Below, in pieces: positions 38,591 through 55,859 of a stretch of DNA of 64,000 bases. Each line of letters begins with the position of its first letter. Within the stretch, counting starts at the first letter, position 1. Origin of the DNA: Clostridia bacterium (GTDB taxonomy: Bacteria > Bacillota > Clostridia > Oscillospirales > CAG-272); contig JAFTNU010000001.1 of assembly GCA_017451735.1 (NCBI GenBank), positions 11,156 through 75,155 of the forward strand. The letters are read 5' to 3'. The translations under genes and the position numbers were made by a program. The notes under the pieces are model-generated. The model was given only the letters and a program-made list of their open reading frames with translations, had not been told where the DNA came from and made no database searches.

Positions 38591-38632
38591 GTGTTTAGCC
38601 AATTAAACAAAGCGGCCTGAAAGGAGATTATT

Positions 38633-39990: not shown

Positions 39991-39998
39991 GGTGCGCC

Positions 39999-40538
39999 AT
40001 GAGACTTGCATATAAGGCTTTCGAGCCGGGATTTGTGTGTCGTGGCGCTGCCTTCAAGCCCATCGGCGAGAAGAATGTGACCTCCGAGGCCAACTGCGTG
40101 AAAAACGGCTGGCACTGTGCCGAGGATCCCGCCGATTGTTTGCGGTATTATCCGAACCTGCGGGGCTCGGTTTACTGCATCGTAGGCGTAGAGGGAGACA
40201 CCGACGAGGACGCGGTGGACAGCAAGATCTCCTGCACCGAGCTGACGATCCTGCGGGTGCTGGAGCCAAAGGATTACTTTCTGCACATTTTGCTCTATAT
40301 GGCAAAGCACCCGGAGCGGGAGTGCTTTGTGGCAAAGCAAGGGCGCGGAGAGGCGTGGAACGGCTATGTGGTAGTGAGAGGACGGCACCCTTACGCCAAG
40401 GGAAAAGAGGGCGATTTGTTGGCGATGGCTCGCGAGGAGGACGGCGAGATCGTGCAGATTGCGGTTTACGTGGTAGGCGTGGATGTGCCCGAGGGCGTTT
40501 ATGTTGATATTAACGGACAGGAGGAAATCAAAGAATGA
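39999..40538 (+). CDS. Hypothetical protein (conserved phage-associated KAF..CRG..F..G..C..G.H domain)
   Basis: MRLAYKAFEPGFVCRGAAFKPIGEKNVTSEANCVKNGWHCAEDPADCLRYY resembles a domain seen in many phage proteins. No firm family name. Confidence 0.5.
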   Translation: MRLAYKAFEPGFVCRGAAFKPIGEKNVTSEANCVKNGWHCAEDPADCLRYYPNLRGSVYCIVGVEGDTDEDAVDSKISCTELTILRVLEPKDYFLHILLYMAKHPERECFVAKQGRGEAWNGYVVVRGRHPYAKGKEGDLLAMAREEDGEIVQIAVYVVGVDVPEGVYVDINGQEEIKE

Positions 40539-42403
40539 ATGATACAGTAAAGGACGAATTTGCGGGAATGCCCGAGATTCCGCAGTACATATACGACAAG
40601 ATCGACGAGGGCTTTCGCAAGTATCTGTTTTTTGAAACGATCAAGAAGGGGCACCGACGGTACACCTGCACCGCTTGCCATAAGACCTTTGAGGAGGGCG
40701 AACTGGTGCTGAGAGACGTGATGAGCGCTGAGGATTTTGCTTTGTTCCGCGCTAAACACAACGACTATGCGGAATGCCCCTTGTGCGGTGCGCGGGCGAT
40801 GGTCAAAAACGTGAAGGTGAGCGACGTGAGTGGGTTTTGGGAGAGCAATTGTGTGGCGGTGTTTATGGCAAACAGTCACGACGATGTGTGGATCCGCGCC
40901 ATCTATGCTGACCGCGGCTACTGCTACAAGAACGCGACCGGCGAGATCGTGAACTATCTGCACGGCAAAACAAAGCACTGGGAAAGTGCCCGTTACCATC
41001 TAACGCCCGGGCATTACGACCATTGGAAAGCGTGGTCGAGTGACCGCCCTTTGGTGTATGAGACGCACGCCACCGAGCCCTTTACCTGGAACCACGGGCT
41101 GTATGCCGAGAAATACGACTATCACATCGCCTATGTACAGGATCTGAAGGACACTTTCCTCTGCTATCACGGCATGAGCAATTTCTATATGGCCAATCAC
41201 CCGATCCGTTATCTTTGCCATTACGCAGAGCACCCTCAGTTGGAGATGCTGTCGCGTATGAAGCATGATTTTCTTGTTTATGAGGTGGTGATGGAGAACC
41301 GTGACAATACCTCACTGCTTGATTGGAGTGCGAAAAAACCGTGGGATCTGTACCGTCTGCCCAAACAGGAGTACAACGAATGGGCGAAGTATCGCTATGA
41401 TCTGGACGTGTACAAGATCTTCAAGAGGATCAAGGGCAAGGGACGACGTGATTGGGAGAGGGCCAAGGAGCTGGATGACAATTTCTATCGGTTGAAAGGT
41501 GTTTATGCCTTTATTGCCAAGGCGCGGCGCTTGAAGGTGGAGGTGCGCGAGCTGATGAATTACATTAACCGTGTGCAGCAGAACAGCGGCGGTGGGTGTT
41601 GGCATTGTCCCGGTATTACCTTGCAAGAGGCCTACACCCTGTGGGGTGACTACATAGCTTTGGCAGAAAAGGCGGGAATGGTGGGTACCGTGTCGCCAAT
41701 GCCAAAGGACTTGAAGGTCGAGCATGACCGCCTGTTGAATGTGTTGAAGGCTATCGAGGAGCGTAAGCAGCGGCGCAAGTGGGCAGAGGCTCGCAAGGCG
41801 CGTATGACTGCGGCGCAGAAGGAAGGTAAGGCACTGGAGCGCAAATACGGAGGCGTGCGTGCTTTTTACAAAACGGTGCAGAAATACGCCTACAAGGGCA
41901 AGAAATATGCCGTGGTGGTGCCCACGTGCATCGGCGACATTTTGTATGAGGCCAAGGATCTGAATCATTGCATTGCCCGCGCTCCGGAGCGCTACTTTGA
42001 CCGCATTCGTTCCGGCGAGAGCTTTCTGCTCTTTGTACGCAAGGCCAAAAAGCCAAACGTCCCGTATTATACCATCGAGGTGGAGCCGGGCGGCGCGGTG
42101 CGGCAAAAGCGCACTTACAACGACACACAGGATCACAATATCGGGGAGATCACCGCTTTTTTGGCCGAGTGGCAGGCGGCGATACAGGACAAGCTCACCG
42201 AAAAGGACAAGCAGGCGGCGGCAGCGAGCCGCGAAAAGCGCATCGAGGGCTTGGCCGAACTCCGGCAGAACAAAACCGTCGTGCGCAACGGTCACCTGCA
42301 GGGCAAGCTCCTTGCCGACGTGCTGGAGGCGGATCTTTTGGAGGTTGGATTTGCACCCGAAACGAAAAAGAAGGCCGAGAGGGCCAAAAGAAAGGTTGGT
42401 TAA
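40535..42403 (+). CDS. PcfJ-like protein
   Basis: 622 aa. C-terminal DLNHCIARAPERYFDRIRSGESFLLFVRK..PYYTIEV recalled as the PcfJ-like domain. ATGA overlap with the upstream gene. Confidence 0.5.
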   Translation: MNDTVKDEFAGMPEIPQYIYDKIDEGFRKYLFFETIKKGHRRYTCTACHKTFEEGELVLRDVMSAEDFALFRAKHNDYAECPLCGARAMVKNVKVSDVSGFWESNCVAVFMANSHDDVWIRAIYADRGYCYKNATGEIVNYLHGKTKHWESARYHLTPGHYDHWKAWSSDRPLVYETHATEPFTWNHGLYAEKYDYHIAYVQDLKDTFLCYHGMSNFYMANHPIRYLCHYAEHPQLEMLSRMKHDFLVYEVVMENRDNTSLLDWSAKKPWDLYRLPKQEYNEWAKYRYDLDVYKIFKRIKGKGRRDWERAKELDDNFYRLKGVYAFIAKARRLKVEVRELMNYINRVQQNSGGGCWHCPGITLQEAYTLWGDYIALAEKAGMVGTVSPMPKDLKVEHDRLLNVLKAIEERKQRRKWAEARKARMTAAQKEGKALERKYGGVRAFYKTVQKYAYKGKKYAVVVPTCIGDILYEAKDLNHCIARAPERYFDRIRSGESFLLFVRKAKKPNVPYYTIEVEPGGAVRQKRTYNDTQDHNIGEITAFLAEWQAAIQDKLTEKDKQAAAASREKRIEGLAELRQNKTVVRNGHLQGKLLADVLEADLLEVGFAPETKKKAERAKRKVG

Positions 42404-42406
42404 GAT

Positions 42407-43603
42407 ATGGCAAAGAAAGTTATCAACGACAGATGCCCGTTGGCGGATGAGTGTGAGCGCAAGACGTGCGTTTATAAAGGCCACGAGTTGGATTGCATTT
42501 ACTACGACACGAACGGTGAGGCAAGTGGCGGCATATCCGATCAGGAGCAGCGCAGGCGAGAAAGAGAGCGGCGTGCAATGGATGAATTTTACGAGGAACG
42601 TTTCAAGCAAAAAAAGGCCGAGCGTTCCAACGAGGAGAAATTGCCTGCGCCTGCGGCAGAGGTGTTGCCGGTACGCGAGGCAAGCGAGATCGCGCTGGAG
42701 ATCAACATCATCAAGCGCGAGACGTGGGAGATCTGTGCACGTTCGTCAATCAAGATTGGTGAGCTGTTGAATGAGGCAAAAGCCTCGGTCGGTCACGGCA
42801 ATTGGGAAAACTGGCTGCGGGATAATGTGGATTATTCTATTTCCACGGCGCAACGCTTGATGAAGCTGGCAGATACATATGGCGGGCAGTTGATCTCCGG
42901 TGAGGAGGATGCGGTGACTGAGGCGATCGCTTCTATGCTTCCCTCCAAAGCCCTGTTGCTTGCTCAGCTTGAGCCCGAGCAGCGTCGCGAGTATGTAGAA
43001 AATCATGATGTAGAAAGCGAATCTACCCGTGAGATGCGGGAGCAGATCAGGATCCTCAAAGCAGAAAAGGAACAGCTTGTGGCAGATTTGGATGCTGAGA
43101 CGGGCAAAGCCCAAAGTGCCACCGAGCAGTTGGAAGCCGAAAAGGCTGCCCATGCAGAAGCCTTAAAAAAGGCCATTGCGGAAAATGAGGATATAGTCAA
43201 ACGTGCCGATGAGGCAGACAAACTCAAAAAGGAAGTGGAAACACTGAAACAAAAGTTGGAGAAAGCCGAGGCACAGAAAAAGAGCGCCCAGGAAGCCGCC
43301 GAGCAGGCGAAAGTCGAAGTCAAGCCGGATCCTGTTCTGGAAACCGAGATCGAGCGCTTGCGTAAAGAGGTGGCAGAAGCCGAAGGGCGCGCGAACACGA
43401 TCGAGGAGGAGTATCGGCGCAAGCTGGAGCGTGCCGCCAATCCGAATATGCAAGCGTTCCTGTATGCGGTGCAAGCCTGGCAGAGGAGCAGCGCTGAGCT
43501 TCTTCAACACTACGCTACTGTAAAGGCAGATGATGCCGAGGGCGCCGAGAAGTTCGCGACAGCGATCAAACAACAGATCGCGGCTCTGGAACAGAGCCTG
43601 TAA
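42407..43603 (+). CDS. DUF3102-like protein with coiled-coil C-terminus
   Basis: GHGNWENWLRDNVDYSISTAQRLMKLA fits the DUF3102 pattern. Long E/K/A-rich coiled coil. Confidence 0.55.
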   Translation: MAKKVINDRCPLADECERKTCVYKGHELDCIYYDTNGEASGGISDQEQRRRERERRAMDEFYEERFKQKKAERSNEEKLPAPAAEVLPVREASEIALEINIIKRETWEICARSSIKIGELLNEAKASVGHGNWENWLRDNVDYSISTAQRLMKLADTYGGQLISGEEDAVTEAIASMLPSKALLLAQLEPEQRREYVENHDVESESTREMREQIRILKAEKEQLVADLDAETGKAQSATEQLEAEKAAHAEALKKAIAENEDIVKRADEADKLKKEVETLKQKLEKAEAQKKSAQEAAEQAKVEVKPDPVLETEIERLRKEVAEAEGRANTIEEEYRRKLERAANPNMQAFLYAVQAWQRSSAELLQHYATVKADDAEGAEKFATAIKQQIAALEQSL

Positions 43604-43614
43604 GGAGAATTACA

Positions 43615-44466
43615 ATGGCTGGTCGTCCGCTCAAAAGTGGAGTTGATTACTGGTCGTTTGATGTTGGACTGTTTGAAGATAAGAAATTCAAACTGATCCG
43701 CGGGGAGTTTGGCGCTAAAGGCGTGTTGATCGCGCTTTTTGCGCTGAACTCCTGCTATAAGGACAATGGGTATTTCAGAGTTTGGGAGGATGATGACGCG
43801 ATCCTGCTTTCAGAGGAAGTAGGTTGTGGTTGTTCTCCAGGGCTTGTGCAGCAGGTCGTACGGGCGTGTGTCGCGCGTTCGCTTTTTGATAAGCGGGTTT
43901 TCGATACGCACCAAGTGTTGACTTCTGTGGGTATCCAGCGGCGCTACTTGCGAATTGTAGCGAAGAACCGCCTTGCCATACCGCTGATCTCAGAGTATTG
44001 GGTCTTGCCGAAAGACGAGATCCCGCCCGATACTCTTTTAAAGTGTACCTTTAAAAACATCAACGACACGGAAAAATCAATTATCCGCACGGAAAATGAA
44101 GAAGCCCGAACGGAAAATAACACTAATGAAAGTAAACGAAGTAAACAGTTTTCCTCTCCCGCGCGCGAAGGCACGGAGACCTTTGGACGTTTTCAGAACG
44201 TGTTCTTGCTTCCCGAGGAATATCAGACCTTGAAAGAGCAGATCCCCGATACGGATGCTTTCATAGATGCCTTTTCGGAGAAGCTGGAGAGCAAAGGGTA
44301 CGTTTATCAGAATCATTTTGCCACGCTTTTGTTGTGGTATCGTGATGAGCAAAAGGAGAAAATGGGTAGAACCGAAGGAAAGAAGGAGCCCGTAAGTCAA
44401 AGCAGCTTTGACATTGACGATATGTGGGAAGCTGCATTAAAACGGACATATGGCGACATGGAATGA
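43615..44466 (+). CDS. DUF4373 (Lin1244/Lin1753-like) replisome-organizer-type protein
   Basis: MAGRPLKSGVDYWSFDVGLFEDKKFKLIRGEFGAKG matches the DUF4373 N-terminus seen in phage replication modules. Confidence 0.55.
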   Translation: MAGRPLKSGVDYWSFDVGLFEDKKFKLIRGEFGAKGVLIALFALNSCYKDNGYFRVWEDDDAILLSEEVGCGCSPGLVQQVVRACVARSLFDKRVFDTHQVLTSVGIQRRYLRIVAKNRLAIPLISEYWVLPKDEIPPDTLLKCTFKNINDTEKSIIRTENEEARTENNTNESKRSKQFSSPAREGTETFGRFQNVFLLPEEYQTLKEQIPDTDAFIDAFSEKLESKGYVYQNHFATLLLWYRDEQKEKMGRTEGKKEPVSQSSFDIDDMWEAALKRTYGDME

Positions 44467-44478
44467 AAGGAGGCAGTG

Positions 44479-44643
44479 ATGCTATTACATATCGGCGGAT
44501 TTAATATATTTCAAAACGATACGACCTTTGGTGTGTGGATCTATAAAGAGGGCAAGTGCATTGCCACTGCCTCCTGTAACGGCCCGTTGGACGGTAAGAC
44601 CCTTATGGAAATTTTATATCACGTACAAGGAGGGCGGAAATGA
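44479..44643 (+). CDS. Hypothetical small protein (54 aa)
   Basis: AAAGGAGG RBS. Stop overlaps the next start (ATGA). Confidence 0.35.
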   Translation: MLLHIGGFNIFQNDTTFGVWIYKEGKCIATASCNGPLDGKTLMEILYHVQGGRK

Positions 44644-44999
44644 CAAAGGAAGATTTGTTGGAATATAACTCTCTATGCGACGAATGGGACGAGCTGTGCC
44701 GACGGATCAATGAGTTGGAGCAGCATCACGAAGTGAATCGCTCTGCCTTTGCCGAGTTGGTTTATGATCGCAGACTGCTCTCTTTGAAAAAGAGGAAAGT
44801 GTACGTGGACGAGCGTATCAGCGCCATGGAAGTAGAGATCGAACGTCTGCCGAGTATAGAGCGCCGATTGATCTGTCTCCGCTATTTTGAAGGTTGGAGT
44901 TGGCGTAAGATTGCGTGTGAATTGGGGTATTCATACGATCATGTAACTGGATATTTGCATAAAAAAGCGCTTTGCGATTTGAAAGTTAACAATTCATAA
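44640..44999 (+). CDS. Sigma-70 region-4-type HTH protein (phage late-regulator-like)
   Basis: LPSIERRLICLRYFEGWSWRKIACELGYSYDHVTGYLHKKAL is a region-4-like HTH. Confidence 0.55.
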   Translation: MTKEDLLEYNSLCDEWDELCRRINELEQHHEVNRSAFAELVYDRRLLSLKKRKVYVDERISAMEVEIERLPSIERRLICLRYFEGWSWRKIACELGYSYDHVTGYLHKKALCDLKVNNS

Positions 45000-45139: not shown

Positions 45140-45715
45140 ATGGCAGAAAACAAGAAGAACGTGAACGAGGCAACGGAAATGAACGTGGACAAGCAGACCG
45201 GTGAGGTCTTTGATACTCCCGTCAGTCCTACTCCCTTTGGAATCCCTACGGTATCGGCACCGACCGTCCAATCTGAGTACGACGCGGAAGGGTACGACGA
45301 TGATCTTGGCAATGATGAAGATCTGCGCCGCGAGGGCGATGCGATCGCTACCGGCTTGCTGGTACGACGTGTGGTCTTGAAGCCCCGCACCAGAGGCGCC
45401 AAGCCTGTGCACGTGTATAATATCGAAGGCGAGTTGCGCGGGCAGAAGATCAGCGTGGCAATGAATCCCCCCGACAAGAGAGGCTTTTCCCTGCTGGATC
45501 TTGTCTATGGCGATGCGGTGGCACTTCCCCTTTGGATGGTGCCTTATGAGATGAAGGACGATAACGGTCAAAAGATCTCGGGCTGCACCTACAAGATCAT
45601 GTCGTTGGATGCCGAGGGCGACGTGCTGGAATGTAAGATGAAGCCCCGCCAGGATAGCGACAAGCGCATGTTGGAATGCCTGATTCGTAAGGCTCAGAAA
45701 AAGGCGGCACAATGA
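45140..45715 (+). CDS. Hypothetical protein
   Basis: ATG follows AAAGGAAA. Acidic N-terminus then a beta-rich domain. No family recognised. Confidence 0.5.
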   Translation: MAENKKNVNEATEMNVDKQTGEVFDTPVSPTPFGIPTVSAPTVQSEYDAEGYDDDLGNDEDLRREGDAIATGLLVRRVVLKPRTRGAKPVHVYNIEGELRGQKISVAMNPPDKRGFSLLDLVYGDAVALPLWMVPYEMKDDNGQKISGCTYKIMSLDAEGDVLECKMKPRQDSDKRMLECLIRKAQKKAAQ

Positions 45716-46051: not shown

Positions 46052-46339
46052 ATGGCAAAACAGTACATGAACAAAAAAGGAGAGAAAAAGACCTGGTTTT
46101 CTCCGAAGGACAAGGTGGTCAAGTATTGCAATGAAAAGAAGTATGACAGAAGTGACTACAGCGGCGCTCCTCTTACAGATGCCCAAAAGGCGTATCGTGA
46201 TGGGTATATCAAAGCTCATCAGGATCATACGACCTTGCATTTGCTGAAAAATGGGCAAGGAGAGAAAGTGCGTGCCTGGGAGGCCAAGAAGCGTGAACAG
46301 CGTAAAAAATATCTTGAGGAGAAAAACGGAAAAAAGTAA
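46052..46339 (+). CDS. Hypothetical lysine-rich protein
   Basis: RBS AAAGGAG. 95 aa, basic. Confidence 0.45.
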   Translation: MAKQYMNKKGEKKTWFSPKDKVVKYCNEKKYDRSDYSGAPLTDAQKAYRDGYIKAHQDHTTLHLLKNGQGEKVRAWEAKKREQRKKYLEEKNGKK

Positions 46340-46377: not shown

Positions 46378-46653
46378 ATGCCAAATGCGGATAACTCAAT
46401 GGAGTTTTATCCCCATTTTCGTAAGTACCTTAAATCAGGACACCCTACTCTTATCGTATCCGAGCGTTCCGAAAGTGAGTACAATTACCGTAAGGTGATG
46501 CACTCCGATCGAGACGGCCGGCATTTGAATGAGAAGGTTGATCCCAATCCGAATCCAAAGGATTCAAGACCGATGTTTATCGGTAAGCGTGTGCGTCATG
46601 ATGAGAAAAAGTATTTCGGCAAGCGATTTCCGTGGGTTTATCCAAAAAAATAA
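46378..46653 (+). CDS. Hypothetical protein
   Basis: 91-aa ORF. The start is uncertain (internal ATG at 46399). Confidence 0.4.
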   Translation: MPNADNSMEFYPHFRKYLKSGHPTLIVSERSESEYNYRKVMHSDRDGRHLNEKVDPNPNPKDSRPMFIGKRVRHDEKKYFGKRFPWVYPKK

Positions 46654-46803
46654 AGGGAGCAAAATGCTCCCTTTCAGCGACCCACGGGTATTGAACGAAT
46701 TCTCACCATTATTTTGCCCTTACGGGCTCACGCTTTGTTATATTATACCTGATTTTGTTGGGTATGTCAATATCAATTTTAATAAAAGTGAGGTAAAAAA
46801 AAC

Positions 46804-47352
46804 ATGAGTAAAACTGTAAAAAGATTGCTCGGTGTTCTCGGCGTGTTACTGGTGGGCGTGCTGCTGACCGTTCTGGTCAGTAACCTGCTCGGCATTGCCG
46901 AATGGAACGTGAAGGAAGTCAATGAAGACAACTTGTATCAGTCCTTGACATTTGCCGATGCCAACGGTGTGATCGCTTCCGGTGAAGACGGAATTTCCGT
47001 TAAATTGGATGAAGAAGATAACACGATCAAAGTCAAAGGCACCGCCGGGGCAGATGTTACCTATCTGATCGGCACTACTACGCTTAAAGCCGGTACTTCG
47101 TACATCTTTGACGGCTCTCTTGAGGAAGGTTCCAACCAGACCATTTACGTCAGTGTTGTCAATAAGTCTACCGGCGAAGTGATCAAGTCCAGTTATCGCG
47201 ATGCAGTACTGATCTCTGCGGATAGTATCACTGCTGATACCGAGGTTAAGATCGAGATCACGATCAAGGCTGATACCACTGTCAATGAGACCTTGGAGAT
47301 CATCCTTTGTGAAGGCAATGACGTGGATGAGATCGTAAACTACTTCAAGTAA
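46804..47352 (+). CDS. Membrane-anchored/secreted protein
   Basis: N-terminal TM/signal [18 protein letters not shown] then a beta-rich ectodomain. Confidence 0.55.
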
Positions 47353-47365
47353 TAGGGGTGCAGCT

Positions 47366-48535
47366 ATGACCAAGTTTTTGCTTGCGTTGTTAGCGATCCT
47401 GGTCTGTCTGGGATGTGTTGTTGGAGTGTCGAACTTCAATAACACATCCGGTACGGTGGATCGTGTGGACACTTCTCCCGATGCCGATGGTACATCGACG
47501 GCCGAATTTATCGTGATCCAGGAGGAGTTTACCAGCGTGGAGGCTATGAATGCCGGATTTGAGACCGATGGTGTTTCGATCGGCGGCTATGTTCTGGTCA
47601 ACACCAGTGATGTCGAGGACGAAGACAACGCGAAAATGTATATCAAACGTGCGGATGGCTATAAGTTGGTCACCGATCTTTCCGGCGCCAGTGGTGAGCA
47701 AGGCCCCCAGGGCGAAAAGGGCGAACAGGGTGAGCAAGGCATCCAGGGCGTCCAAGGTCCCCAGGGAGAAAAGGGCGAACAAGGTGAGCAAGGCATCCAG
47801 GGTGTCCAAGGCCCCCAGGGCGAAAAGGGCGAACAGGGTGAGCAAGGCATCCAGGGCGTCCAAGGCCCCCAGGGTGAAAAGGGCGAACAGGGTGAGCAAG
47901 GCATCCAGGGCGTCCAAGGTCCTCAAGGTGAGAAAGGTGATCAAGGTGTTAGCATAACCGGCGCAACCATAAACGAAAGCGGGCATCTTATCATTACTCT
48001 TTCCGACGGTACTACCATTGACGCCGGATTGGTCAGCAACGGTTCTGCCGATAGCGATGGTATTACCTATACCGATGTTTGTTTGTGGGACATAGAAACT
48101 TCGACTTGGGTGGATTTAAGCCTTAATGCTCCAGACGATGATAGTCTCCAACGGCAGAGTTGCCCATATTGTAGCAACCGTGTGTATACAACTGGTACGA
48201 TATATTCTCTCAGCGTTGACACTTCATGCCCCCATTGTCAAAAAGGAATTCGCCTTGACAACCGCGAAGGCTCGCTTGTTGTCGATGTTCTCTATGCCGA
48301 TGATACTGCAACCTATATGGTGACCTTGTCTGATGGTAGTATGGAATCGAGTAGTATTAGCAAATATTACGGTGGCAGTTCGATGGGTTACTACTACAAC
48401 GAAACACATAATGTGATGTTCTTAACGTGGAGTTACATTGGTGATATTTCCGGCGATGTTACTGTTACGTTAGACGATGGCACAGAAGTCACCATTGCGG
48501 CATCCGATTGGAAAACGAATCCGTACTATGTGTGA
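47366..48535 (+). CDS. Collagen-like (G-X-Y) repeat protein with N-terminal signal/anchor
   Basis: Signal-like [19 protein letters not shown]. 28 uninterrupted G-X-Y triplets ([18 protein letters not shown] repeated). Cys-rich C-terminal domain. Confidence 0.8.
47693..47945 (+). repeat. 54-bp coding tandem repeat (about 4.5 copies)
   Basis: Near-identical 54-bp units that differ mostly at third codon positions. Confidence 0.85.
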
Positions 48536-48555
48536 TTGAAATAACGAATCAAAAG

Positions 48556-48591
48556 ACAGCCTATGGCCTTTGGGGCTGTAGGCTGTTTTTG
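48556..48591 (+). terminator. Rho-independent terminator candidate
   Basis: ACAGCCTA .. TAGGCTGT followed by TTTT. Confidence 0.55.
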
Positions 48592-48606
48592 AAAGGAGTG
48601 AAAAAA

Positions 48607-49329
48607 ATGGGAAAAAAAGTTTTGATTTTATTTGTGGTAACCCTGTTGGTTTGCGGATTTGTGTTAAGCGCTGCGGTTCATATTGGCGTTTTCGGTTCTG
48701 ATGAAGTAGAGGCATCGCCGGGAAACGATACAAATACCAATGCCGGAACAGATACCGCTCCCGATACGGGTGAAGACTCCGATACAGGAACCACTCCCGA
48801 AGTGGATTCGTTCTTTGATCCGCTTGATGTATCTACCTTCGATCCTGCCAGACATGAGAATCTTTTTGAATATTCGGGAGTGAGCTTGGCAGCAGGCGAG
48901 GTAGTTTGTGACGGCAACGTTTATGATACCGTGACCTTTGCTTCCAATTCCGACCGACAATTTATTCAATTCTATGATCCGAGTGAATCTTTGTTTATGG
49001 TGTCGTGGGAGGCGACCAATATGGATATGGGCAGTGTGACCTTTGAACCCGGTTATATTTATCATTGTTATTACAAAATAGACAATGGCAAATATATTCG
49101 TTATAACCCAACACAGGTGATAAGTGAGGAATCGGGTGAGGTTAGTGGTTATTCCGAATTTACCTTGCTTGATTCTGCCGGAAATGTTGTAAAATTTGGG
49201 TCTGGGCTAATGGTGGAAGAAACGATAACGGCGACTTTGTATTTAGGAGCTGGTTTTTCTGATGAAATATCGGATTTGTTTTTAGGTGACTACCTTTACA
49301 TTTACGTCGTCCGTGTTCCTGCAACGTAA
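48607..49329 (+). CDS. Secreted/membrane-anchored protein
   Basis: RBS AAAGGAG. Signal-like MGKKVLILFVVTLLVCGFVLSAAV. Confidence 0.55.
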   Translation: MGKKVLILFVVTLLVCGFVLSAAVHIGVFGSDEVEASPGNDTNTNAGTDTAPDTGEDSDTGTTPEVDSFFDPLDVSTFDPARHENLFEYSGVSLAAGEVVCDGNVYDTVTFASNSDRQFIQFYDPSESLFMVSWEATNMDMGSVTFEPGYIYHCYYKIDNGKYIRYNPTQVISEESGEVSGYSEFTLLDSAGNVVKFGSGLMVEETITATLYLGAGFSDEISDLFLGDYLYIYVVRVPAT

Positions 49330-49348
49330 TGAAAGCGAGGAGTAAGTT

Positions 49349-51322
49349 ATGTTTCGAAAAATTTGTTGTTTAGTTCTAATGTTATGCATTTTGGCGTCTG
49401 TGTTCGCGGTAACAGCATCTGCCGCAGCCGGTGACGGTAAAGTGATGGAGGAATTGTCAAAACTTAAGATTGACGGTCTGCCTTTTTTTGAATCGATGTA
49501 TCCTGTAAATTCTCAAGATGACAATATGTATGTATTGACAGCTGTAGAGATAGGATATCGAACCAGTAGTGCCTCCCCCGGTTTTGCGTTTTTTGTGTAT
49601 ATCTATAATCCAAGTTGCAAGACGGTGGTGGATGATCCTTCTAATGCGATTCAGATCGGTTTGAATGATTCTTGTGAGGACTATATCTATTTGGGTCTGA
49701 AATTGGATGGTTTTTCCCGTGATAACCGCTTTTTGAAATTCAAAGTCGTCACTACAGATACATACGGCTCTGTGACACAAATGTACAGTTCTCAGAGAAC
49801 CGATGCTGAACGCATTTACAATATAGCGTCATTGCGCTTATTGGCTGAGGGAACGGTGAAGACTTTCCCGATTAAGCGTGCGTTTTGTTTTTCCGGATAT
49901 GATTCAGATAGTTCCTTGACTTGCCAATTCAAGGAGCTTTATGCCCTGGATGCAAAGATTCGTTTCACCAATTGGATCTCCCCCAATGCCGGAGCCAAGA
50001 CCGATGGAAGCCCGGCTACGATTTATGACCATTATGAGATCAATTCGGCATATTTTACTTTGCCTAAGTCCCTTTTTAAAGCTTACAATACAGACGGCTA
50101 TGACTTTATCCAGAGCATTAGAGCGGCTTATAATGCTTATAAACTTACACCTATTATTGTTACAAGACCGGATATTTTTGATTTAACTACAATTGATGCT
50201 ATTAAGAGCGGTACCGTAGTTGGAGACAATGGTAGCAATATAGATGTTATGGATTTGCTTGCAAAACCCGCTTACTGGTGGACTACCGGTGGTTATGATC
50301 CCGGTTGGATCTATACTGAGAGCTCTTGGCTTGCAAGTGATTTGAATGTTGGTGATGCCGATCGCTATGATTGCTTGGCTTATTATTTTGAAAATCCGCT
50401 TATTCCTAAGGATTTCGATTTTGAATATGGCAAAAATTCTATGGTTGCTGTTTCTGCAGAGGAATTAGAGACGTATTTTCTGGAACGGTATAATAATTCC
50501 TCGTACGAAAATAGTAAACTCTATTCATACGAAGAATATTGCTTGATTGACTATAATTCCGCCGATTACGGTAAGGATTATCTCTATAACATGTCTACTT
50601 ATCAGATGTCTGTTGACCTGAATAAGTGGTATTATAAACGAAACCTGAAAACCGATTCCTATGTGTATGAGGATTTCAATGTTACTGCAAAAAAGATAGA
50701 AGTGATCACTGAGCCTTCTGCTTATTCTTCTCTTACTTCGGATCGGTATGAGGCTGTTGCCGAGGATTTGTACTTAGGATATAACGATGTTGGCGATTTT
50801 TCTAAGCTTTGCGCCAGTGCTGCAGCCAATGACGAGGTAGTGGTTCTGCTTCGTTTTGGATGGTCCGATTATACTTGTACTCCTGTTTATGATGTTCCGG
50901 AAGTTGCAGCTGTTATTTTTGGCGATCCTGTTGCCATGGCTATCGAAAAATGGGCTTATATGGACGTGAATTTGGTCCACGTGGTTTTTTCTAAAAATGG
51001 ACAGGCCATTACCGTGCCGATCGTCAGCAATACGAGCAATTCTTTCGGCGACATTGTGATCTTTGAGGATCCTGTTAAGGATAATCCCTTTACCGATGAT
51101 GGTGGTGGCGATGATAACGGTCTGCCCGAATGGTTGAAAAATGCGCTGCGGGTTATTTTCATCGTGATAGCTTTCGTTCTAATCATCTTGTTCGTTGTCC
51201 TCGTATTTCCGATTCTAAAACCAATATTCGGCATTGCGGGAGACGATTTGTCAAGCGCAAGAGAAGAAGCTAAGCGACGACGAAAATTAAAGAATGAGGG
51301 AAAGCGAAAAAAGAAGAAGTAA
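49349..51322 (+). CDS. Large secreted protein with C-terminal TM anchor and basic tail
   Basis: Signal peptide MFRKICCLVLMLCILASVFAVTASA. C-terminal TM VIFIVIAFVLIILFVVLVFPIL then KRRRKLKNEGKRKKKK. Confidence 0.6.
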   Translation: MFRKICCLVLMLCILASVFAVTASAAAGDGKVMEELSKLKIDGLPFFESMYPVNSQDDNMYVLTAVEIGYRTSSASPGFAFFVYIYNPSCKTVVDDPSNAIQIGLNDSCEDYIYLGLKLDGFSRDNRFLKFKVVTTDTYGSVTQMYSSQRTDAERIYNIASLRLLAEGTVKTFPIKRAFCFSGYDSDSSLTCQFKELYALDAKIRFTNWISPNAGAKTDGSPATIYDHYEINSAYFTLPKSLFKAYNTDGYDFIQSIRAAYNAYKLTPIIVTRPDIFDLTTIDAIKSGTVVGDNGSNIDVMDLLAKPAYWWTTGGYDPGWIYTESSWLASDLNVGDADRYDCLAYYFENPLIPKDFDFEYGKNSMVAVSAEELETYFLERYNNSSYENSKLYSYEEYCLIDYNSADYGKDYLYNMSTYQMSVDLNKWYYKRNLKTDSYVYEDFNVTAKKIEVITEPSAYSSLTSDRYEAVAEDLYLGYNDVGDFSKLCASAAANDEVVVLLRFGWSDYTCTPVYDVPEVAAVIFGDPVAMAIEKWAYMDVNLVHVVFSKNGQAITVPIVSNTSNSFGDIVIFEDPVKDNPFTDDGGGDDNGLPEWLKNALRVIFIVIAFVLIILFVVLVFPILKPIFGIAGDDLSSAREEAKRRRKLKNEGKRKKKK

Positions 51323-51417
51323 CAAAAATTCCCCGGCTGAAATATGCCGGGGAGATCTAAAAGCAGCTTTGAGTAATTTGTCAATCTTTATTTTGGGATT
51401 TTTGAAAGGAAGTGTTT

Positions 51418-51534
51418 ATGAAACATATATTACGATTTTTCCGCTTGCTGTGGCGCTGCATTCAGTTGTGCCTGTTGTTTGCCGTGGTGCTGTGCATCGG
51501 CTATTTTGCCTATCTGCTGTGCTTTGTCGCGTGA
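51418..51534 (+). CDS. Small hydrophobic protein (38 aa)
   Basis: RBS AAAGGAAG. MKHILRFFRLLWRCIQLCLLFAVVLCIGYFAYLLCFVA. Below the ORF-track cutoff. Confidence 0.35.
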   Translation: MKHILRFFRLLWRCIQLCLLFAVVLCIGYFAYLLCFVA

Positions 51535-51543
51535 GGTGCCGCT

Positions 51544-53709
51544 ATGTGGAAGAAGTTAAAACAACTTGATTACCGTCATCTGCTCTGTTTGGCCTTGGTG
51601 CTGGGCTCGGTGGCGCTGGGGATATTCGTATATAAATATCCCTTCGTGCGAGTTGGTGAGTCTCTTAATGACTTCGGACGTGCCCTGGCGTATACCGTCA
51701 CCGATCTGATCGGGATCGCCGAGCGCGCACCCGAGCAGACAGTCAATGAGTTTTCAGGCGTGGACCTGATGGAGATCTTCAATATTGATGCATCGGGGAT
51801 CCGGGACAAGCTGACCAGTGTATGGCGGGAGATCTTCGTGTGGGAGAATTTCGCTTCGTATCTGTTTTTCCTGCTTCGCGGGTTCGTTTGGATCCTGTTT
51901 TATTTGTGCATCGCGTTCCTGCTGGTCATTCCTTTGGCGTTGCCTGTGATTTTAAGCTGGGAGAGCGTCAATAACGATTATAACGCAGATACACTTCCTT
52001 TGCGTCTGTTCAAACGGTTTGTCGTGACGCCCTGCCGCAGTGTTTTTGCGTGGTGTAAGGCATTTTGGCACTTCTTTCGGGAATCTACCTACTGGGGTTG
52101 GTTCGTTGCCGTCTGGCTCTTAAATCTGGGTGTGTTCACGGTGATATTTTCCTTTTTGGCATATTATTTCTGGATGCTCACCACTCTTGATTTTTCCACC
52201 GTAGGCGTACAACTCCTGAAGCTGATCGCGGATCTGCTTCTCGCGTTCCATACCTTGCCCCTTTTCTGTTGGCTCCTGTTCGCGGCGCTATTCTGTGGGT
52301 GGTTTTTCCGCCGCTTTGCCCTTCGGGTCCTGCGCGGCATGGTCGCTAAAACTGTTGAGACGATAGCAAAACTCCCCATGGTCATATTCCTGGTGGGTCT
52401 GCCCCGCAGCGGTAAGACCACGCTTTTGACCGCCCTGGGTCTGTACTTCTCGATCCTGTTCCGACAGACGGCACAAAAACTTATGGCGCGTAACGTATTG
52501 AAATTCCCCACTTTTCCCTGGATCAATCTGGAACTGGAGATCCGGGCCCGCGTAGAGGATCATACTGTTTGGAATTTTTACACCATTCGTAAATGGGTGG
52601 ACGAGCTGCAAGCAGAGTTTGAGGCGGATCCTTGCCGGGAGAAGATCTTCGACTATGATTTTGAGAAGGAGCGTTATGAGTATGACGATCATTTGCAGGT
52701 CATAGATATCTGGACTTCGATCAAAAACTATTCCCAAGAATTCTTTATCTATTGGCTTCAAAGCTCGATGCTGGTCGCCAATTACGCGGTGCGTGAGGAT
52801 TTTGTTTTTCATGATCTGGGCAACTTTCCGATGCTCGATACCGATTTCTTTTCGCGTGATGCGCGGGATCAGGATCAGATCAGTACCATGTCGCACATTC
52901 TCGACCACGATATGCTCCGCAGAGGCGTGAAAATGTTGGAGGACAACGTGCGCAGCGGCACTCTGGAGTTCGGTATCGCCATGGTTTCGGAGGGCTCCCA
53001 GGAACGGCAAAATACCCTCCAACTGCAAGAGGTCAAGGCAAAAGCTGAGGAGTGCAACCAAAAGAACGACCTTTACGAGGAGGACCTTCAGACCCGAGGC
53101 CACGCCGCCACAGTGGAGAATTTCTGTTTCTTCCACTTTCTCATTGATTCTCAGCGCGCCGAGGGTTGGTCTGCCAAGGGTCGTGAGTTAGGCTATGTGC
53201 TCCATATCTCCCCCAAGAGCGGCACACGGAGCGCTCTGCCTTTCTTTTGGATCATCAATGGTTTGATCTCCCGTTATCTCAATTGGTGGGAGGACGGCTA
53301 TTGGAACGGTCGCTATAAGTGGGGCAATAATCGTCTGATCACCTATATCCTCAACGGCATAGCGTCGGCGCTTTACGGCTACCAGTTACGCCGCACCAAT
53401 GATTTCGGTTTTTACCGTCAGATCACCGAGTTGGAGAGCGGCAAGTCGGGCGGTCATAAGGAGAAGCTAACGCTGGATATGCCTCTTAAGGTGATCTACA
53501 GCCGCCGCTTTGCCACCGATTGCTTTAAGGCGTATACAGAGCCCTTCACGGCGGAGTGTCCCGTCGGCTTGAACGATCTGCCCGCCTATCGCGCCCTGTA
53601 CCCCTCCTTCGAGGAACTGATGGAGCAGCACAGTCATTTCTTCAACAAGCTGTTCCGTTATTACATATTGCATTATAGCGAAGAAGAGAACGACGAAAGA
53701 AAGGAGTAA
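51544..53709 (+). CDS. Polytopic membrane protein fused to a P-loop NTPase
   Basis: Several N-terminal TM helices, then Walker A VGLPRSGKTTLL (about residue 290). Possible degenerate Walker B GIAMVSEG. Confidence 0.6.
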   Translation: MWKKLKQLDYRHLLCLALVLGSVALGIFVYKYPFVRVGESLNDFGRALAYTVTDLIGIAERAPEQTVNEFSGVDLMEIFNIDASGIRDKLTSVWREIFVWENFASYLFFLLRGFVWILFYLCIAFLLVIPLALPVILSWESVNNDYNADTLPLRLFKRFVVTPCRSVFAWCKAFWHFFRESTYWGWFVAVWLLNLGVFTVIFSFLAYYFWMLTTLDFSTVGVQLLKLIADLLLAFHTLPLFCWLLFAALFCGWFFRRFALRVLRGMVAKTVETIAKLPMVIFLVGLPRSGKTTLLTALGLYFSILFRQTAQKLMARNVLKFPTFPWINLELEIRARVEDHTVWNFYTIRKWVDELQAEFEADPCREKIFDYDFEKERYEYDDHLQVIDIWTSIKNYSQEFFIYWLQSSMLVANYAVREDFVFHDLGNFPMLDTDFFSRDARDQDQISTMSHILDHDMLRRGVKMLEDNVRSGTLEFGIAMVSEGSQERQNTLQLQEVKAKAEECNQKNDLYEEDLQTRGHAATVENFCFFHFLIDSQRAEGWSAKGRELGYVLHISPKSGTRSALPFFWIINGLISRYLNWWEDGYWNGRYKWGNNRLITYILNGIASALYGYQLRRTNDFGFYRQITELESGKSGGHKEKLTLDMPLKVIYSRRFATDCFKAYTEPFTAECPVGLNDLPAYRALYPSFEELMEQHSHFFNKLFRYYILHYSEEENDERKE

Positions 53710-53712
53710 AAT

Positions 53713-54714
53713 ATGCTTTGCAGAGTTTTTCATGATGGTACTAACTATGTAGCTCATGCCCCCGGCAGAAGCCCGTATGCCGGCGTAAAACGGCGTCCGA
53801 AGAAGCCCCACGAACTGGCTTTCCGAGAGCTTTATCGCAGCACTCTCACGGGCACCAGATCCGTGACCGCGGATGGCGTTAGCTTTACCCCCGGCATCAG
53901 CGGCAAGAAACAGGCGCAGTACATCATGGAAACTCTGGAAGACACCTTCGGCGCCATAGAGAATTGGGAAAAATTCGTTGAAGAGGAATTTGCCCGGGAG
54001 GAGCACAATTATTACGTACGGAAACGGCGCTTTTGCCGTAAGGCATTTCTCAACGACTGGAACTATTTTGTAACCTTTACTTACAGTGACGAAAAGGAGA
54101 CCGAGGAGAGCTTCAAGCGGCGATTGAGACGTGCACTGTCGAATCTCCATTCCCGTAGGAACTGGTACTATATGGGGTGTTTCGAGCGCTCCGAGATCGG
54201 AAGACTGCACTTTCATGGGCTCTTTTATATCCCGCCGGGGCAAATGGTGGGAAAGATTCGCGAGGAAAAGTCCTATAGCACCAAGCGGCGGCGTATGCAG
54301 ATCTCTTTTATTAACAGTTGGTTTGAGAAGCGCTTCGGTCGTAACGACTTTGAGGAGATCACGGGCGACGACGTCAAACGCGGTCCCACGTTGGGGTATA
54401 TTCTGAAATATATCGAGAAGACGGGGGAACGAATCATCTACAGCCGCGGCATTCCCACCAACATTGTGGCAGAGATCAGTTATGATCAGTGTGTGTGCGA
54501 GTTTTTTAATTTTGTCAGGAAGTGGGTACTGTTCCGTGATTGGCAAAGGATAAATCCATGCACCGAAAACAAGCTCCTGGAGGGAGAGGAAGCCGAGGAG
54601 TGGCTGATCTGCTTCACCGGTTATGAATACGAGGGCTACAGTTGTTTTTCTGAGCCCGATCCACCGCCCCGCCCAACAGGTCCGTACATTCCGTCTCCTT
54701 ATCTCACAGCATAG
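53713..54714 (+). CDS. HUH rolling-circle replication initiator (two-tyrosine, phiX174 gpA-like motif set)
   Basis: Motif 1 FVTFTY, motif 2 RLHFHGLFY (HUH), motif 3 YILKYIEK (YxxKY, compare phiX174 YVAKYVNK). Confidence 0.7.
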   Translation: MLCRVFHDGTNYVAHAPGRSPYAGVKRRPKKPHELAFRELYRSTLTGTRSVTADGVSFTPGISGKKQAQYIMETLEDTFGAIENWEKFVEEEFAREEHNYYVRKRRFCRKAFLNDWNYFVTFTYSDEKETEESFKRRLRRALSNLHSRRNWYYMGCFERSEIGRLHFHGLFYIPPGQMVGKIREEKSYSTKRRRMQISFINSWFEKRFGRNDFEEITGDDVKRGPTLGYILKYIEKTGERIIYSRGIPTNIVAEISYDQCVCEFFNFVRKWVLFRDWQRINPCTENKLLEGEEAEEWLICFTGYEYEGYSCFSEPDPPPRPTGPYIPSPYLTA

Positions 54715-54717
54715 ATC

Positions 54718-54741
54718 AAAAACCGCAACGTTGCCGTTTTT
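54718..54741 (+). terminator. Element B hairpin repeat, copy 4
   Basis: AAAAACCGCAACGTTGCCGTTTTT, 3 nt after the Rep stop. Confidence 0.5.
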
Positions 54742-54834
54742 GACCTCTCCCTACCATCTCCTTTTTCTTTCTGAAAAAATGACATAACCTCGGCAGCCCT
54801 TGTGGTGCCGACTGTCTTAAACCAGTTTTCCATA

Positions 54835-55030
54835 TGTGGTAAGGTGGTGGCATGTACGGTAGATCGGTAGACTTTTGCACATGCATGGCTTGTGTGAAAG
54901 TCGTGAAGCCGATCACCGTGCAGGACAAAAAAGCGGTAGGCGGTCATGCCCCTCTGTGGTAAGGCGGCACCATAGGTAAAGCGGTAGGTTTTTGCACATG
55001 CGTAGCTTGTGTTAAAACCGTTAAGCCGAT
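54835..55030 (+). repeat. Iteron-like direct repeats (two ~78-nt units, ~120-bp period, plus shorter copies up to 55194)
   Basis: TGTGGTAAGG..GGTAG..TTTTGCACATGC..GCTTGTGT..AAGCCGAT occurs twice. The 18-mer GAAAGTCGTGAAGCCGAT is exact at 54896 and 55110. TTTCCAYATRKGG occurs three times. Confidence 0.65.
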
Positions 55031-55241
55031 TTGCCGTATATGGGGCAAAAATCGGTAGAGCTTTTCAACCGCCTTAGCGGTCGTAGACAGATCCCGAGGG
55101 GAGCTGTTGGAAAGTCGTGAAGCCGATTTTTAGGCTTTCCACATAGGGGCAGGAACGGCGTGAAGGCGCTTTTTAAGCTTTCCACATGTGGTAAACTTGC
55201 CGTCTGTGCAGAAACAGACAATAAAACTCAAACAAAAAAAG

Positions 55242-55267
55242 AGCCCATGAGAGCCATGGGCTTTTTG
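55242..55267. terminator. Bidirectional hairpin terminator
   Basis: A-run, AGCCCATG / CATGGGCT, T-run. Confidence 0.55.
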
Positions 55268-55272
55268 GCGTT

Positions 55273-55376
55273 GCGGCGGATTACGGTCAAGGGTGACGAA
55301 AGACGCATCGGGGGACGCCGAGGCAGGAGCGAAGCCCCCTCGGCGCCCCGCGCTTTCGCACCTTGACCGCCGCCGC
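55273..55376. other. About 104-nt GC-rich imperfect hairpin
   Basis: GCGGCGG..GGTCAAGG..CGAAAG..GGGGACGCCGAGG pairs with CCTCGGCGCCCC..CTTTCG..CCTTGACC GCCGCCGC. An overlapping alternative hairpin lies at 55371-55390. Confidence 0.55.
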
Positions 55377-55491
55377 GCGTCAGCGCGGCGGCGCTCGTCA
55401 AGTCAAGGTGTCGTCTAATGCTCATTTTTAAAAAAATGGGTGATGAGAGTGTATGTGATGTGACACTAATTCTCATAAATTACATTTAGGC

Positions 55492-55583
55492 CCGCCCAGC
55501 TGACTGATGATGATCTTGGCGTAATTGGCGTTGGGGGTCTTGATCTTAACGGGGTATTGCAGCTTCTTATCATAGGTCCACAT
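55492..55583 (-). pseudogene. cotJC: cotJC segment 1 of 3 (N-terminal piece)
   Basis: ATG at 55583 lies 3 nt after the cotJB stop, with an AAGGAGG RBS inside the cotJB end. MWTYDKKLQYPVKIKTPNANYAKIIISQLGG matches the B. subtilis CotJC N-terminus (MWVYEKKLQYPVKV..). It ends at the core CCGCC. Confidence 0.85.
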
Positions 55584-55586
55584 GGG

Positions 55587-55859
55587 TCAGTTTGCCTCCT
55601 TTTCCCAGGGCCAGGGGCCTTCGACCCATTCCCAGTTGTTTTCGCTTTGGTTGTTGTAGAGGGTGAGGGGGCCGAATTTCTCTTCGAATTCTGCCCTGAG
55701 CATGTCGGTGATCCTTTTATGCTCGTGGTAGTATTTCAATGCCTTTTTGTTGCCGGGGTGGGCATCCAGGTAAAGGGCAACCTCATAAAGGGCAAAATCC
55801 TCTGCCCGGAGCTTGTGCAGCAGGGCGGAGCGGTCATTGGAATTCATGCTTTGATTCAT
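55587..55859 (-). CDS. cotJB: Spore coat protein CotJB
   Basis: DFALYEVALYLDAHPGN..FGPLTL..WEWVEGPWPWE matches the CotJB pattern. Overlaps the cotJA stop. Confidence 0.85.
   Translation of the reverse strand: MNQSMNSNDRSALLHKLRAEDFALYEVALYLDAHPGNKKALKYYHEHKRITDMLRAEFEEKFGPLTLYNNQSENNWEWVEGPWPWEKEAN

Follow-up and report, generated by a model that had tools for sequence, protein, structure and literature searches.

What kind of element combines a rolling-circle replication gene, a membrane NTPase and a run of exported proteins with no recognisable genes for building or releasing a capsid? The question is raised by Element B, an insertion in the spore-coat gene cotJC of a Clostridia bacterium, found within a 64,000-nucleotide stretch of contig JAFTNU010000001.1 (hereafter the window, whose coordinates are used throughout). 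An original prediction had offered three readings: an inovirus-like (filamentous) prophage, a conjugative or mobilisable element of the FtsK/TraB-plus-Rep type, or a satellite. Its failure to recognise virion genes was borne out when every sizeable open reading frame (ORF) between 35 and 55 kb was searched against Pfam and PHROGs, as no capsid, portal, terminase, tape-measure, tail, holin, endolysin or other lysis gene was detected. We favour, at a probability of roughly 0.45, the reading that Element B is a temperate, non-lytic, capsid-less, inovirus-like element that would export its DNA through the membrane. This reading is ranked first because a membrane-protein module is combined with a membrane ATPase, because rolling-circle replication (RCR) modules are exchanged and DDE transposases and tandem copies occur among relatives, and because capsid and lysis genes are missing. 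No relationship in sequence between the putative morphogenesis proteins and known ones could be detected, and the relatives of Element B constitute a large, apparently undescribed family of 13-20-kb elements in gut Clostridia.

Rep, hairpin and the late module

The Rep of Element B is a two-tyrosine HUH protein, as had been predicted. Its motifs FVTxTY (here FVTFTY), RLHFH (HFH, within HFHGLFY) and YxxKYxxK (YILKYIEK) are conserved in 42 homologues, and comparison with Rep families placed it above the gathering score of PF23343 (Table 1). The large non-coding region described beside it (54,715-55,496) is indeed non-coding but not featureless, since it contains a conserved hairpin and a set of direct repeats. 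In an alignment of 17 loci, compensatory changes were observed in 7 of the 17 base pairs of the hairpin. A covariance model detected the structure in 40 of 42 loci with a PF23343 Rep and in none of 42 loci lacking one, always on the coding strand and in exactly one copy, which in relatives lies a median of ~180 nt after the Rep stop codon. This exclusive co-occurrence indicates that the hairpin belongs to the replication module, and it is most likely the Rep origin or nick site. No Rfam family matched the hairpin at gathering score. A pattern scan of IMG/VR returned 92 stretches, and none of the 80 that were fetched fitted the covariance model, indicating that these were chance matches.

The direct repeats that separate Rep from the hairpin have no counterpart in the close relative L010 or in the other loci. 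They are specific to Element B, where shorter related copies are also present. They could be iterons for the Lin1244-type initiator encoded in the early region, or an inserted repeat element.

Upstream of Rep, translation and hydropathy confirmed all of the late genes that had been described: four consecutive signal- or anchor-bearing proteins, among them a collagen-like one and a 657-aa protein with a signal peptide, a C-terminal transmembrane (TM) segment and a basic tail, followed by a hydrophobic peptide of 38 aa that has a ribosome-binding site (RBS) of its own. The predicted run of exported proteins was thus upheld, while its proposed start at 46,804 was not, as the conserved late module begins at ~45,140 with o226, o95 and o91. 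Representatives of the core families were compared with 38,880 PHROGs and gave no match except a weak Ig-like domain.

A protein with the topology of the 657-aa product is encoded no more than 4.5 kb upstream of the NTPase gene in 57 of the 63 loci with sufficient flank. It diverges fastest of the core proteins (23% identity to its counterpart in L010, versus 65% for Rep), which is how receptor-binding proteins usually behave, and it is a candidate adsorption or cap protein. PHROG 'tail fibre' matches of the 389-aa protein were confined to its collagen repeats, and no homologue of the 241-aa protein was found among the related loci. A homologue of the 38-aa product, a single-TM peptide of ~30 aa (consensus MKTLKRILKVLL...IGYFIYTG), ends just 5' of the NTPase gene in at least 45 of 79 loci, and the peptide in the window retains IGYF. 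These conserved peptides of 30-38 aa have no PHROG match and are candidates for a coat subunit or a partner of the NTPase. Between the 657-aa and 38-aa genes lies a GC-rich hairpin (TCCCCGGC...GCCGGGGA, 51330-51353) that scores as a terminator on the minus strand only; it may set the expression ratio between the upstream structural genes and the peptide/NTPase pair.

Among the small proteins at the start of the module, the very basic o91 is by far the best conserved of the core. It is ~61% identical between elements whose NTPases share just 29-33% identity (homologues at L002 9300-9773 and L064 12195-12485), pointing to a partner that is itself under constraint, for instance DNA or a host factor, and o91 is a candidate DNA-binding or condensing protein. 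o226 did not match anything in Pfam, PHROG or PDB sequence searches; that it binds single-stranded DNA is a guess. The 150 bp that separate o91 from the first anchored protein contain a bidirectional terminator-like hairpin (46652-46674) and, on the minus strand and directed leftward, a perfect consensus sigma-70 promoter (TTGACA-17-TATAAT, 46770-46742). This promoter could drive a transcript within the late operon that is antisense or regulatory.

The membrane ATPase and its possible relatives

The predicted 721-aa polytopic protein with the Walker A motif GLPRSGKTT was recovered by translation and hydropathy. Hydropathy and AlphaFold2 (AF2) models both place an N-terminal membrane domain before a cytoplasmic P-loop motor. 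In an alignment of 27 sequences, K291 (Walker A), E483, Q537 and R538 are invariant; in an alignment of 140 sequences, the glutamine is at least 90% conserved and the arginine invariant. FtsK-HerA ATPases typically have a Gln-Arg pair following the sensor strand.

Comparison of this protein with Zot/pI, FtsK/TraB and VirD4, the check that had been proposed for it, revealed no family membership in Pfam, hhalign or the Foldseek matches listed. The NTPase and 26 relatives did not match any Pfam, NCBIfam or PHROG family beyond P-loop noise; specifically, neither Zot (PF05707; E<=1) nor FtsK_SpoIIIE was among the Pfam matches of these 27 members. PDB sequence and profile searches with the NTPase, Rep and the o226 family gave nothing useful. 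The hhalign probabilities were 4% and 13.5% against the pI/Zot alignment (P-loop only), 11% against PM2 P9, 7.8% against the E. coli FtsK motor and 6% against PRD1 P9, values that do not discriminate among these proteins.

A full-length AF2 model (27 sequences) had a pLDDT of 71 and its Foldseek matches were uninformative, with EssC and EccC appearing only at E>4. The model of residues 262-721 (140 sequences) reached a pLDDT of 94.9 and a pTM of 0.89. Four of its top five PDB matches were the genome-packaging NTPase B204 of STIV2 (E 0.085-0.15, probability 0.60-0.84, TM-score 0.36-0.46 on the target) and the fifth was the HerA translocase (E 0.2), while A32-like packaging ATPases were among the matches in a viral library. 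Zot, FtsK and TrwB were absent from the 50 matches listed. Two BFVD matches, A0A894JLK1 and A0A886NJ23, were entries without a name. Our reading is that the protein is probably a novel, very divergent FtsK-HerA-type ATPase of the additional-strand, catalytic-glutamate (ASCE) class, fused to a polytopic membrane domain. It shares with the FtsK-HerA pumps (STIV2 B204/A32-like enzymes, HerA, FtsK/TraB) a P-loop ASCE core, a conserved acidic residue and the Gln-Arg pair, and with FtsK/TraB the order of membrane domain and motor. In contrast to these pumps, its fold matches are weak (E 0.085-0.2, TM-score 0.44-0.46 on the small target), no similarity is seen at the profile level, and only this family has its large insertions and C-terminal extension.

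The B204 and A32-like matches would also suit a membrane-containing icosahedral virus of the PM2/PRD1 type, in which the NTPase would package DNA at a membrane vertex and the capsid protein would be too divergent to recognise. The circular genome of PM2, ~10 kb in size, encodes a putative replication-initiation protein along with many small membrane proteins, and in PRD1 the P9 ATPase is followed by small proteins, P20 and P22, annotated 'DNA packaging'. However, every late protein of Element B of 150 aa or more is TM-anchored and no conserved soluble protein of capsid size was found, the sole conserved soluble one having a core of ~110 aa. Together with hhalign values of 6-11% against PRD1 P9 and PM2 P9 and the lack of lysis genes, this makes an icosahedral virion very improbable. 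In PRD1 (L266 7637-9944) the P9 gene closely precedes XX (P20, 129 nt) and XXII (P22, 144 nt), possibly an analogy, and no more, to the ~30-aa peptide beside the NTPase.

A fusion of N-terminal TM segments to a C-terminal P-loop motor in a protein of ~720 aa is also the architecture of FtsK/SpoIIIE/TraB, to whose superfamily the fold search weakly points. Element B could accordingly be a minimal integrative conjugative or mobilisable element whose ATPase, like the FtsK/TraB protein of actinomycete integrative and conjugative elements (AICEs), pumps DNA into a neighbouring cell while the exported and anchored proteins provide contact. AICEs of the pSAM2 type are 9-24 kb long and carry a site-specific integrase and an RCR Rep, together with a single translocase associated with the membrane and several small membrane proteins. 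Element B resembles them in all of these respects, and the family compares with them in holding an integrase, an RCR Rep and a single ATPase within 13-20 kb. The PcfJ, PcfK and DUF3102 domains of its early region were originally named from conjugative plasmids, and Rep_trans proteins, which are seen in relatives, can serve as relaxases in integrative conjugative elements.

The layout of membrane domain and motor thus agrees with the predicted FtsK/TraB-plus-Rep element, but the protein families that would identify one do not. Pfam scans of the ORFs between 35 and 55 kb and of the 27 NTPase members detected no FtsK_SpoIIIE, TraG/VirD4, VirB4, relaxase or cell-wall hydrolase, so none of the type IV secretion set of integrative conjugative or mobilisable elements (VirB4-type ATPase, VirD4/TraG, relaxase) was found in the ORFs of this interval, and the hhalign value against the FtsK motor is low. 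Element B also differs from AICEs in host phylum and cell biology, in lacking relatives of Spd, Pif and Kor and in its phage-type regulation; to our knowledge, TraB-type transfer is known in mycelial actinomycetes only. Its genes form a late operon that is preceded by a CI/Cro switch and a late regulator, both of phage type, the conserved very basic small proteins and the ~30-aa peptide have no obvious role in conjugation, and the exported proteins carry TM anchors, no LPXTG-type anchor being visible by eye. We consider conjugation, the foremost alternative to the favoured reading, unlikely.

A family with exchangeable modules

An exhaustive profile search recovered the NTPase family as 1,271 clusters at 50% identity (E<=1e-3), 644 of them at E<=1e-30, and a word-indexed search returned 39 homologues, all of them unnamed and lacking a Pfam domain. 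The NTPase is encoded in at least 257 species genomes when one genome per GTDB species is considered, and a metagenome scan added 330. Nearly all carriers are metagenome-assembled genomes (MAGs) of gut Clostridia (Christensenellaceae, Oscillospiraceae, Borkfalkia, Coproplasma and others), a few are labelled Anaeroplasmataceae, and one, Pumilibacter intestinalis CLA-AA-M10 (locus L064), is cultured. We found no description of these elements in the literature searched, and none of the libraries names their core proteins.

ORFs were called and clustered in 84 loci, all of which encode the NTPase. Recurring beside it on the same strand are a large type-I protein, two to four N-terminally anchored proteins of 160-400 aa, the ~30-aa peptide and the families of o91, o226 and o95. 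Directly 3' of the NTPase gene lies a PF23343 Rep in 42 of the 84 loci. A Rep combining Rep_OBD with a superfamily 3 (SF3) helicase domain is present in 19, L005 has a Rep_trans protein and L002 an HTH_36 protein. Integration genes vary likewise: an IS30-like HTH_38+rve protein is present in 41 loci, and another rve family, a tyrosine integrase (L003) and the serine integrase of Element B were also found. Replication and integration modules thus appear to be swapped around one conserved core. FtsK-like reference genes were not found in the fetched loci.

One relative, L010 from an Oscillospiraceae MAG, is syntenic with Element B over 20 kb, with protein identities ranging from the 23% of the 657-aa protein through 44% (NTPase) to 65-73% (Rep, Lin1244 and PcfJ proteins); this synteny argues that the 20-kb form with its tailed-phage-style early region is a maintained lineage. 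The ends of contigs L036 (13,154 bp) and L210 (14,576 bp) overlap directly by 141 and 55 bp, which agrees with complete, circular genomes of 13,013 and 14,521 bp. Beyond the core gene set, both carry only a DDE transposase and an RCR Rep that includes an SF3 helicase domain. Exact head-to-tail tandem copies at 100% identity were observed in L003 (1-22301; unit 16,886 bp) and in L018/L019 (CAJUSA010000004.1; unit 14,040 bp). Circles and tandem copies are signs of replicating or excised forms and hence of an active family. A further contig, L227, equals the L036 circle in length and proved unrelated.

Exchange of replication and integration modules around one core is also the pattern of filamentous phages (PMC13595969). 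Element B resembles the Tubulavirales of the realm Efunaviria (Inoviridae, Paulinoviridae, Plectroviridae) in lacking a capsid or lysis module and in that its structural candidates are all membrane proteins. It likewise has the gene order of a pIII-like protein (signal peptide and C-terminal TM segment), a small hydrophobic protein and a membrane ATPase. Additional shared features are a Rep of the ORF2/G2P HUH family, interchangeable HUH and Rep_trans replication modules, IS30-type transposases in relatives, temperate integration and tandem copies (PMC13595969). In contrast to filamentous phages, the ATPase shows no similarity to Zot, has double the length and carries 4-5 N-terminal TM segments rather than one or two, and no pVIII-like coat is recognisable. 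The family further differs in its 13-20-kb genomes and in its additional anchored proteins (160-400 aa) and very basic small proteins, and Element B also in its tailed-phage-style early region. Known inovirus genomes from gut Firmicutes are 5.6-9.4 kb (PMC8530359), so that Element B is 2-3 times their size (PMC8530359, PMC10061712). Roux et al. (2019) recognised inoviruses by an ATPase closest to Zot with one or two TM domains; as its NTPase has neither property, the family falls outside that definition, and a kinship with the Zot/pI-type ATPases of Tubulavirales at the FtsK-HerA level is possible but weak. The predicted inovirus-like prophage is therefore partly supported by the switch, the membrane-protein late operon, the membrane ATPase, the ORF2/G2P-family RCR Rep and the transposases, tandems and circles of relatives, but not by Zot/pI similarity, pI topology or a pVIII-like coat.

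A conserved block with exchangeable replication modules defines pleolipoviruses as well (PMC13595969). A pleomorphic virus with an envelope, like a plasmavirus or pleolipovirus, could therefore be envisaged, in which the 657-aa protein is the spike or fusion protein, the peptide and anchored proteins form membrane or matrix, and the basic proteins condense the genome inside a budded vesicle. By topology alone, a type-I spike-like protein, small membrane protein(s), an NTPase and swapped replication modules recall Pleolipoviridae and Plasmaviridae, whose lifestyle is temperate and non-lytic, as proposed here for Element B. The strong conservation of the basic proteins, the existence of relatives without an RCR Rep and the hosts labelled Anaeroplasmataceae would also fit. 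Anaeroplasmataceae are wall-less. However, Pleolipoviridae infect archaea and Plasmaviridae wall-less bacteria, whereas most hosts of this family are walled, spore-forming Clostridia. When 50,697 phage records were searched by tblastn with the NTPase, one unannotated faecal scaffold (MT835493) was the only match; IMG/VR added two contigs. The ATPase of Element B is itself an integral membrane protein, which suggests that DNA crosses the membrane, a step not needed for budding, and favours extrusion or conjugation. A budding virus is thus improbable.

Table 1. Features of Element B and its flanks (window coordinates).
Feature	Position	Strand	Evidence and remarks
Host cotJC continuation, left of Element B	34833-35153	-	
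Element B, whole insertion	35154-55496		20,343 bp; inside cotJC; core CCGCC at both junctions
Large serine integrase	35173-36645	-	Pfam Resolvase 5e-26, Recombinase 6e-21, Zn_ribbon_recom 6e-7
Abi_2 abortive-infection-like cargo gene	36754-37761	-	Pfam Abi_2 1e-24; phrog_2158 1e-39
CI/LexA-like repressor (HTH + S24 peptidase)	37817-38602	-	Pfam Peptidase_S24 9e-26, HTH_3 3e-13
Cro-like HTH protein	38633-38833	+	Pfam HTH_3 4e-16; divergent from repressor
Early region	39622-44999	+	PcfK-like, DUF7666, PcfJ-like (622 aa), DUF3102 and two regulators/initiators; Pfam and PHROGs
Lin1244_N replication initiator/organiser	43615-44466	+	Pfam and PHROGs
Sigma/ArpU-like late regulator	44640-44999	+	Pfam and PHROGs
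o226 (family c9), first late-operon gene	45140-45715	+	Soluble, beta-rich, acidic N-terminus; homologues in 20-23 related loci at same relative position
o95 (family c13), small conserved protein	46052-46339	+	c13 in 14 related loci; tblastn with o95 itself, 2 loci
o91 (family c12), very basic ~100-aa protein	46378-46653	+	Family in 18 loci
182-aa exported protein, N-terminal anchor	46804-47352	+	Hydropathy; homologues in L005 and L010
389-aa collagen-like exported protein	47366-48535	+	Pfam Collagen 6e-17; N-terminal hydrophobic segment
241-aa exported protein, N-terminal anchor	48604-49329	+	Hydropathy; ORF opens at 48508, ATG at 48604 gives 241 aa
657-aa type-I membrane protein	49349-51322	+	Signal peptide, TM residues 594-632, Lys/Arg-rich cytoplasmic tail; hydropathy
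38-aa membrane peptide	51418-51534	+	Hydrophobic, basic N-terminus, GYF motif, own RBS GGAAG
721-aa polytopic membrane P-loop NTPase	51544-53709	+	~4-5 N-terminal TM segments; residues 1-260 membrane domain, 262-721 cytoplasmic ATPase; Walker A GLPRSGKTT
HUH two-tyrosine rolling-circle Rep, 333 aa	53713-54714	+	PF23343 REP_ORF2-G2P 3e-11, 43.8 bits (cut-off 27.8)
Imperfect direct repeats, ~117-120 bp, iteron-like	54824-55199		Repeat families D1-D5; between Rep and hairpin
Conserved two-tier hairpin, asymmetric internal loop	55357-55413	+	Loop CTCGTCAAG in window, CTCGTATAG in most relatives
Host cotJC 5' fragment	55497-55585	-	

Insertion in cotJC, control genes and a proposed cycle

Element B is an intact insertion. 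The core CCGCC is present at the left (35149-35153) and right (55492-55496) junctions, a perfect 12-bp inverted repeat lies at the ends of the element (TGTAATTTATGA, 35158-35169; TCATAAATTACA, 55473-55484), and excision in silico restored the cotJC frame, the joined flanks reading as an unbroken CotJC N-terminus (...IISQLGGPDGELAAAMRYL..., MWTYDKKLQYPVKIKTPNANYAKIIISQLGGPDGELAAAMRYL...). On these grounds we delimit Element B as in Table 1, and it looks excision-competent. The integrase has the Resolvase, Recombinase and zinc-ribbon domains of a large serine recombinase, and the short att (attachment) sites have inverted-repeat arms. cotJC is on the minus strand, downstream of cotJA and cotJB (55587-55859).

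The original prediction had called a location inside a sporulation gene unusual. This was overstated and the site is not odd in itself, because serine-recombinase elements within sporulation genes are a known class (PMC4191935, PMC5595907). Like skin, SPbeta in spsM and gin in gerE, Element B lies within the ORF of a sporulation gene, encodes a large serine recombinase and would allow exact in-frame reconstitution (PMC4191935, PMC5595907). It differs from them in its target, cotJC, and in its cargo, a capsid-less element in place of a tailed prophage or a minimal recombinase cassette. The parallel raises the possibility of a decayed or domesticated intervening element that excises from cotJC during sporulation only and is no longer transmitted horizontally. 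A serine recombinase in a spore-coat operon expressed in the mother cell, as for skin, SPbeta and gin (PMC4191935, PMC5595907), is in keeping with this. The same cotJC insertion was present in two additional metagenome samples, and a search via cotJB found no empty site, the contigs being all occupied or too short. Nevertheless, all of its ~25 ORFs are intact and tightly spaced, with RBSs present in those checked, the core is conserved in the same gene order in hundreds of species, and relatives have circular-looking contigs and tandem forms. Domestication is thus distinctly improbable.

The lack of capsid and terminase genes beside an integrase, a repressor and replication genes would also fit the third predicted reading, a phage satellite that uses the capsid of a helper. 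This proposal found no support. No small-terminase, capsid-remodelling, size-redirection or helper-sensing family was detected in Pfam or PHROGs, nor were the helper-exploitation genes of phage-inducible chromosomal islands (PICIs), capsid-forming PICIs, P4-like satellites or PICI-like elements. Half of Element B is taken up by genes for membrane or exported proteins, for which a satellite has no need. The neighbouring Element A (12451-34833), a low-GC island that has a large serine recombinase of its own (12451-14010, minus strand), likewise yielded no virion genes and looks like a defence island, not a helper phage. A satellite is hardly credible. Element A encodes PRiA4_ORF3/DUF6933, HTH+DUF3990, Fic, UvrD-like and DEAD helicases, a NERD/Schlafen-type helicase, a D12 methyltransferase and a DndB-like protein. 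To the left of Element B, the alignment of the cotJC fragment ends at ~34,833, the right edge of Element A, and cotJC may therefore have been interrupted twice. A complete Mn-catalase/CotJC-like gene (228 aa; 33890-34576) lies on the opposite, plus strand at this edge; its product is ~33% identical to the interrupted host cotJC, and it could be a substitute copy carried by Element A.

Control of Element B appears to be of the phage type, with CI/Cro, a late regulator and early genes of PHROG type. Pfam domains of the S24 repressor and the divergent Cro agree with the predicted switch followed by early genes, from which switch behaviour may be expected. The early region is syntenic in L010 (protein identity 47-73%), and the Abi_2 gene between integrase and repressor is likely lysogenic-conversion or defence cargo.

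For the inovirus-like export element that we favour, these parts suggest the following cycle. The serine integrase would hold Element B in cotJC, and excision, which the sequence permits, would restore the gene. The CI-like repressor and Cro would act as a switch, early genes including the Lin1244-type initiator would start replication, and the sigma/ArpU-like regulator would activate the late operon (45.1-54.7 kb). The HUH Rep would then nick the hairpin with which it co-occurs and initiate RCR. The 721-aa ATPase, together with the GYF peptide of ~30-38 aa, would move DNA across the membrane, as suggested by its architecture and weak FtsK-HerA fold similarity. The exported DNA would become covered by membrane-resident proteins, with the 657-aa and the anchored and collagen-like proteins serving in capping or adsorption, and the basic o91 may neutralise the DNA.

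Several observations weigh against this interpretation. Element B is known from its gene content alone, all later steps being inferred from it. The NTPase is not a detectable relative of Zot/pI by Pfam (27 members), hhalign (4-13.5%) or the Foldseek matches listed, its topology differs from that of pI, and its matches to B204 and HerA are weak. Known coat proteins are longer than the sole small hydrophobic peptide, whose basic end is N-terminal. In addition, some relatives of the L002 type lack a recognisable RCR Rep, the NTPase occurs on just two IMG/VR contigs and one 'phage' record, and for a filamentous phage the genome is large, at 20 kb and with a second initiator that is not of the RCR type.

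More tentatively, Element B and its relatives could represent a high-rank bacterial virus group not recognised before, or a DNA-export element of a new kind, in gut Clostridia, with a morphogenesis module of its own that is missed by current virus-detection tools. This module would comprise the polytopic FtsK-HerA-like ATPase, the ~30-aa GYF peptide, the large type-I protein and the basic proteins, without detectable similarity to the inovirus, pleolipovirus and conjugation proteins tested. We hold this joint claim to be somewhat doubtful. Element B ties such an element, through its serine integrase, to the reconstitution of a spore-coat gene. The idea can be tested directly in the cultured carrier, Pumilibacter intestinalis CLA-AA-M10. 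Should these elements make particles, a common class of gut-bacterial virus would have been overlooked because it carries no capsid, terminase or Zot marker; a new morphogenesis or DNA-export machine would be added, and chronic, non-lytic infection would extend to the gut-prominent Christensenellales and Oscillospirales.

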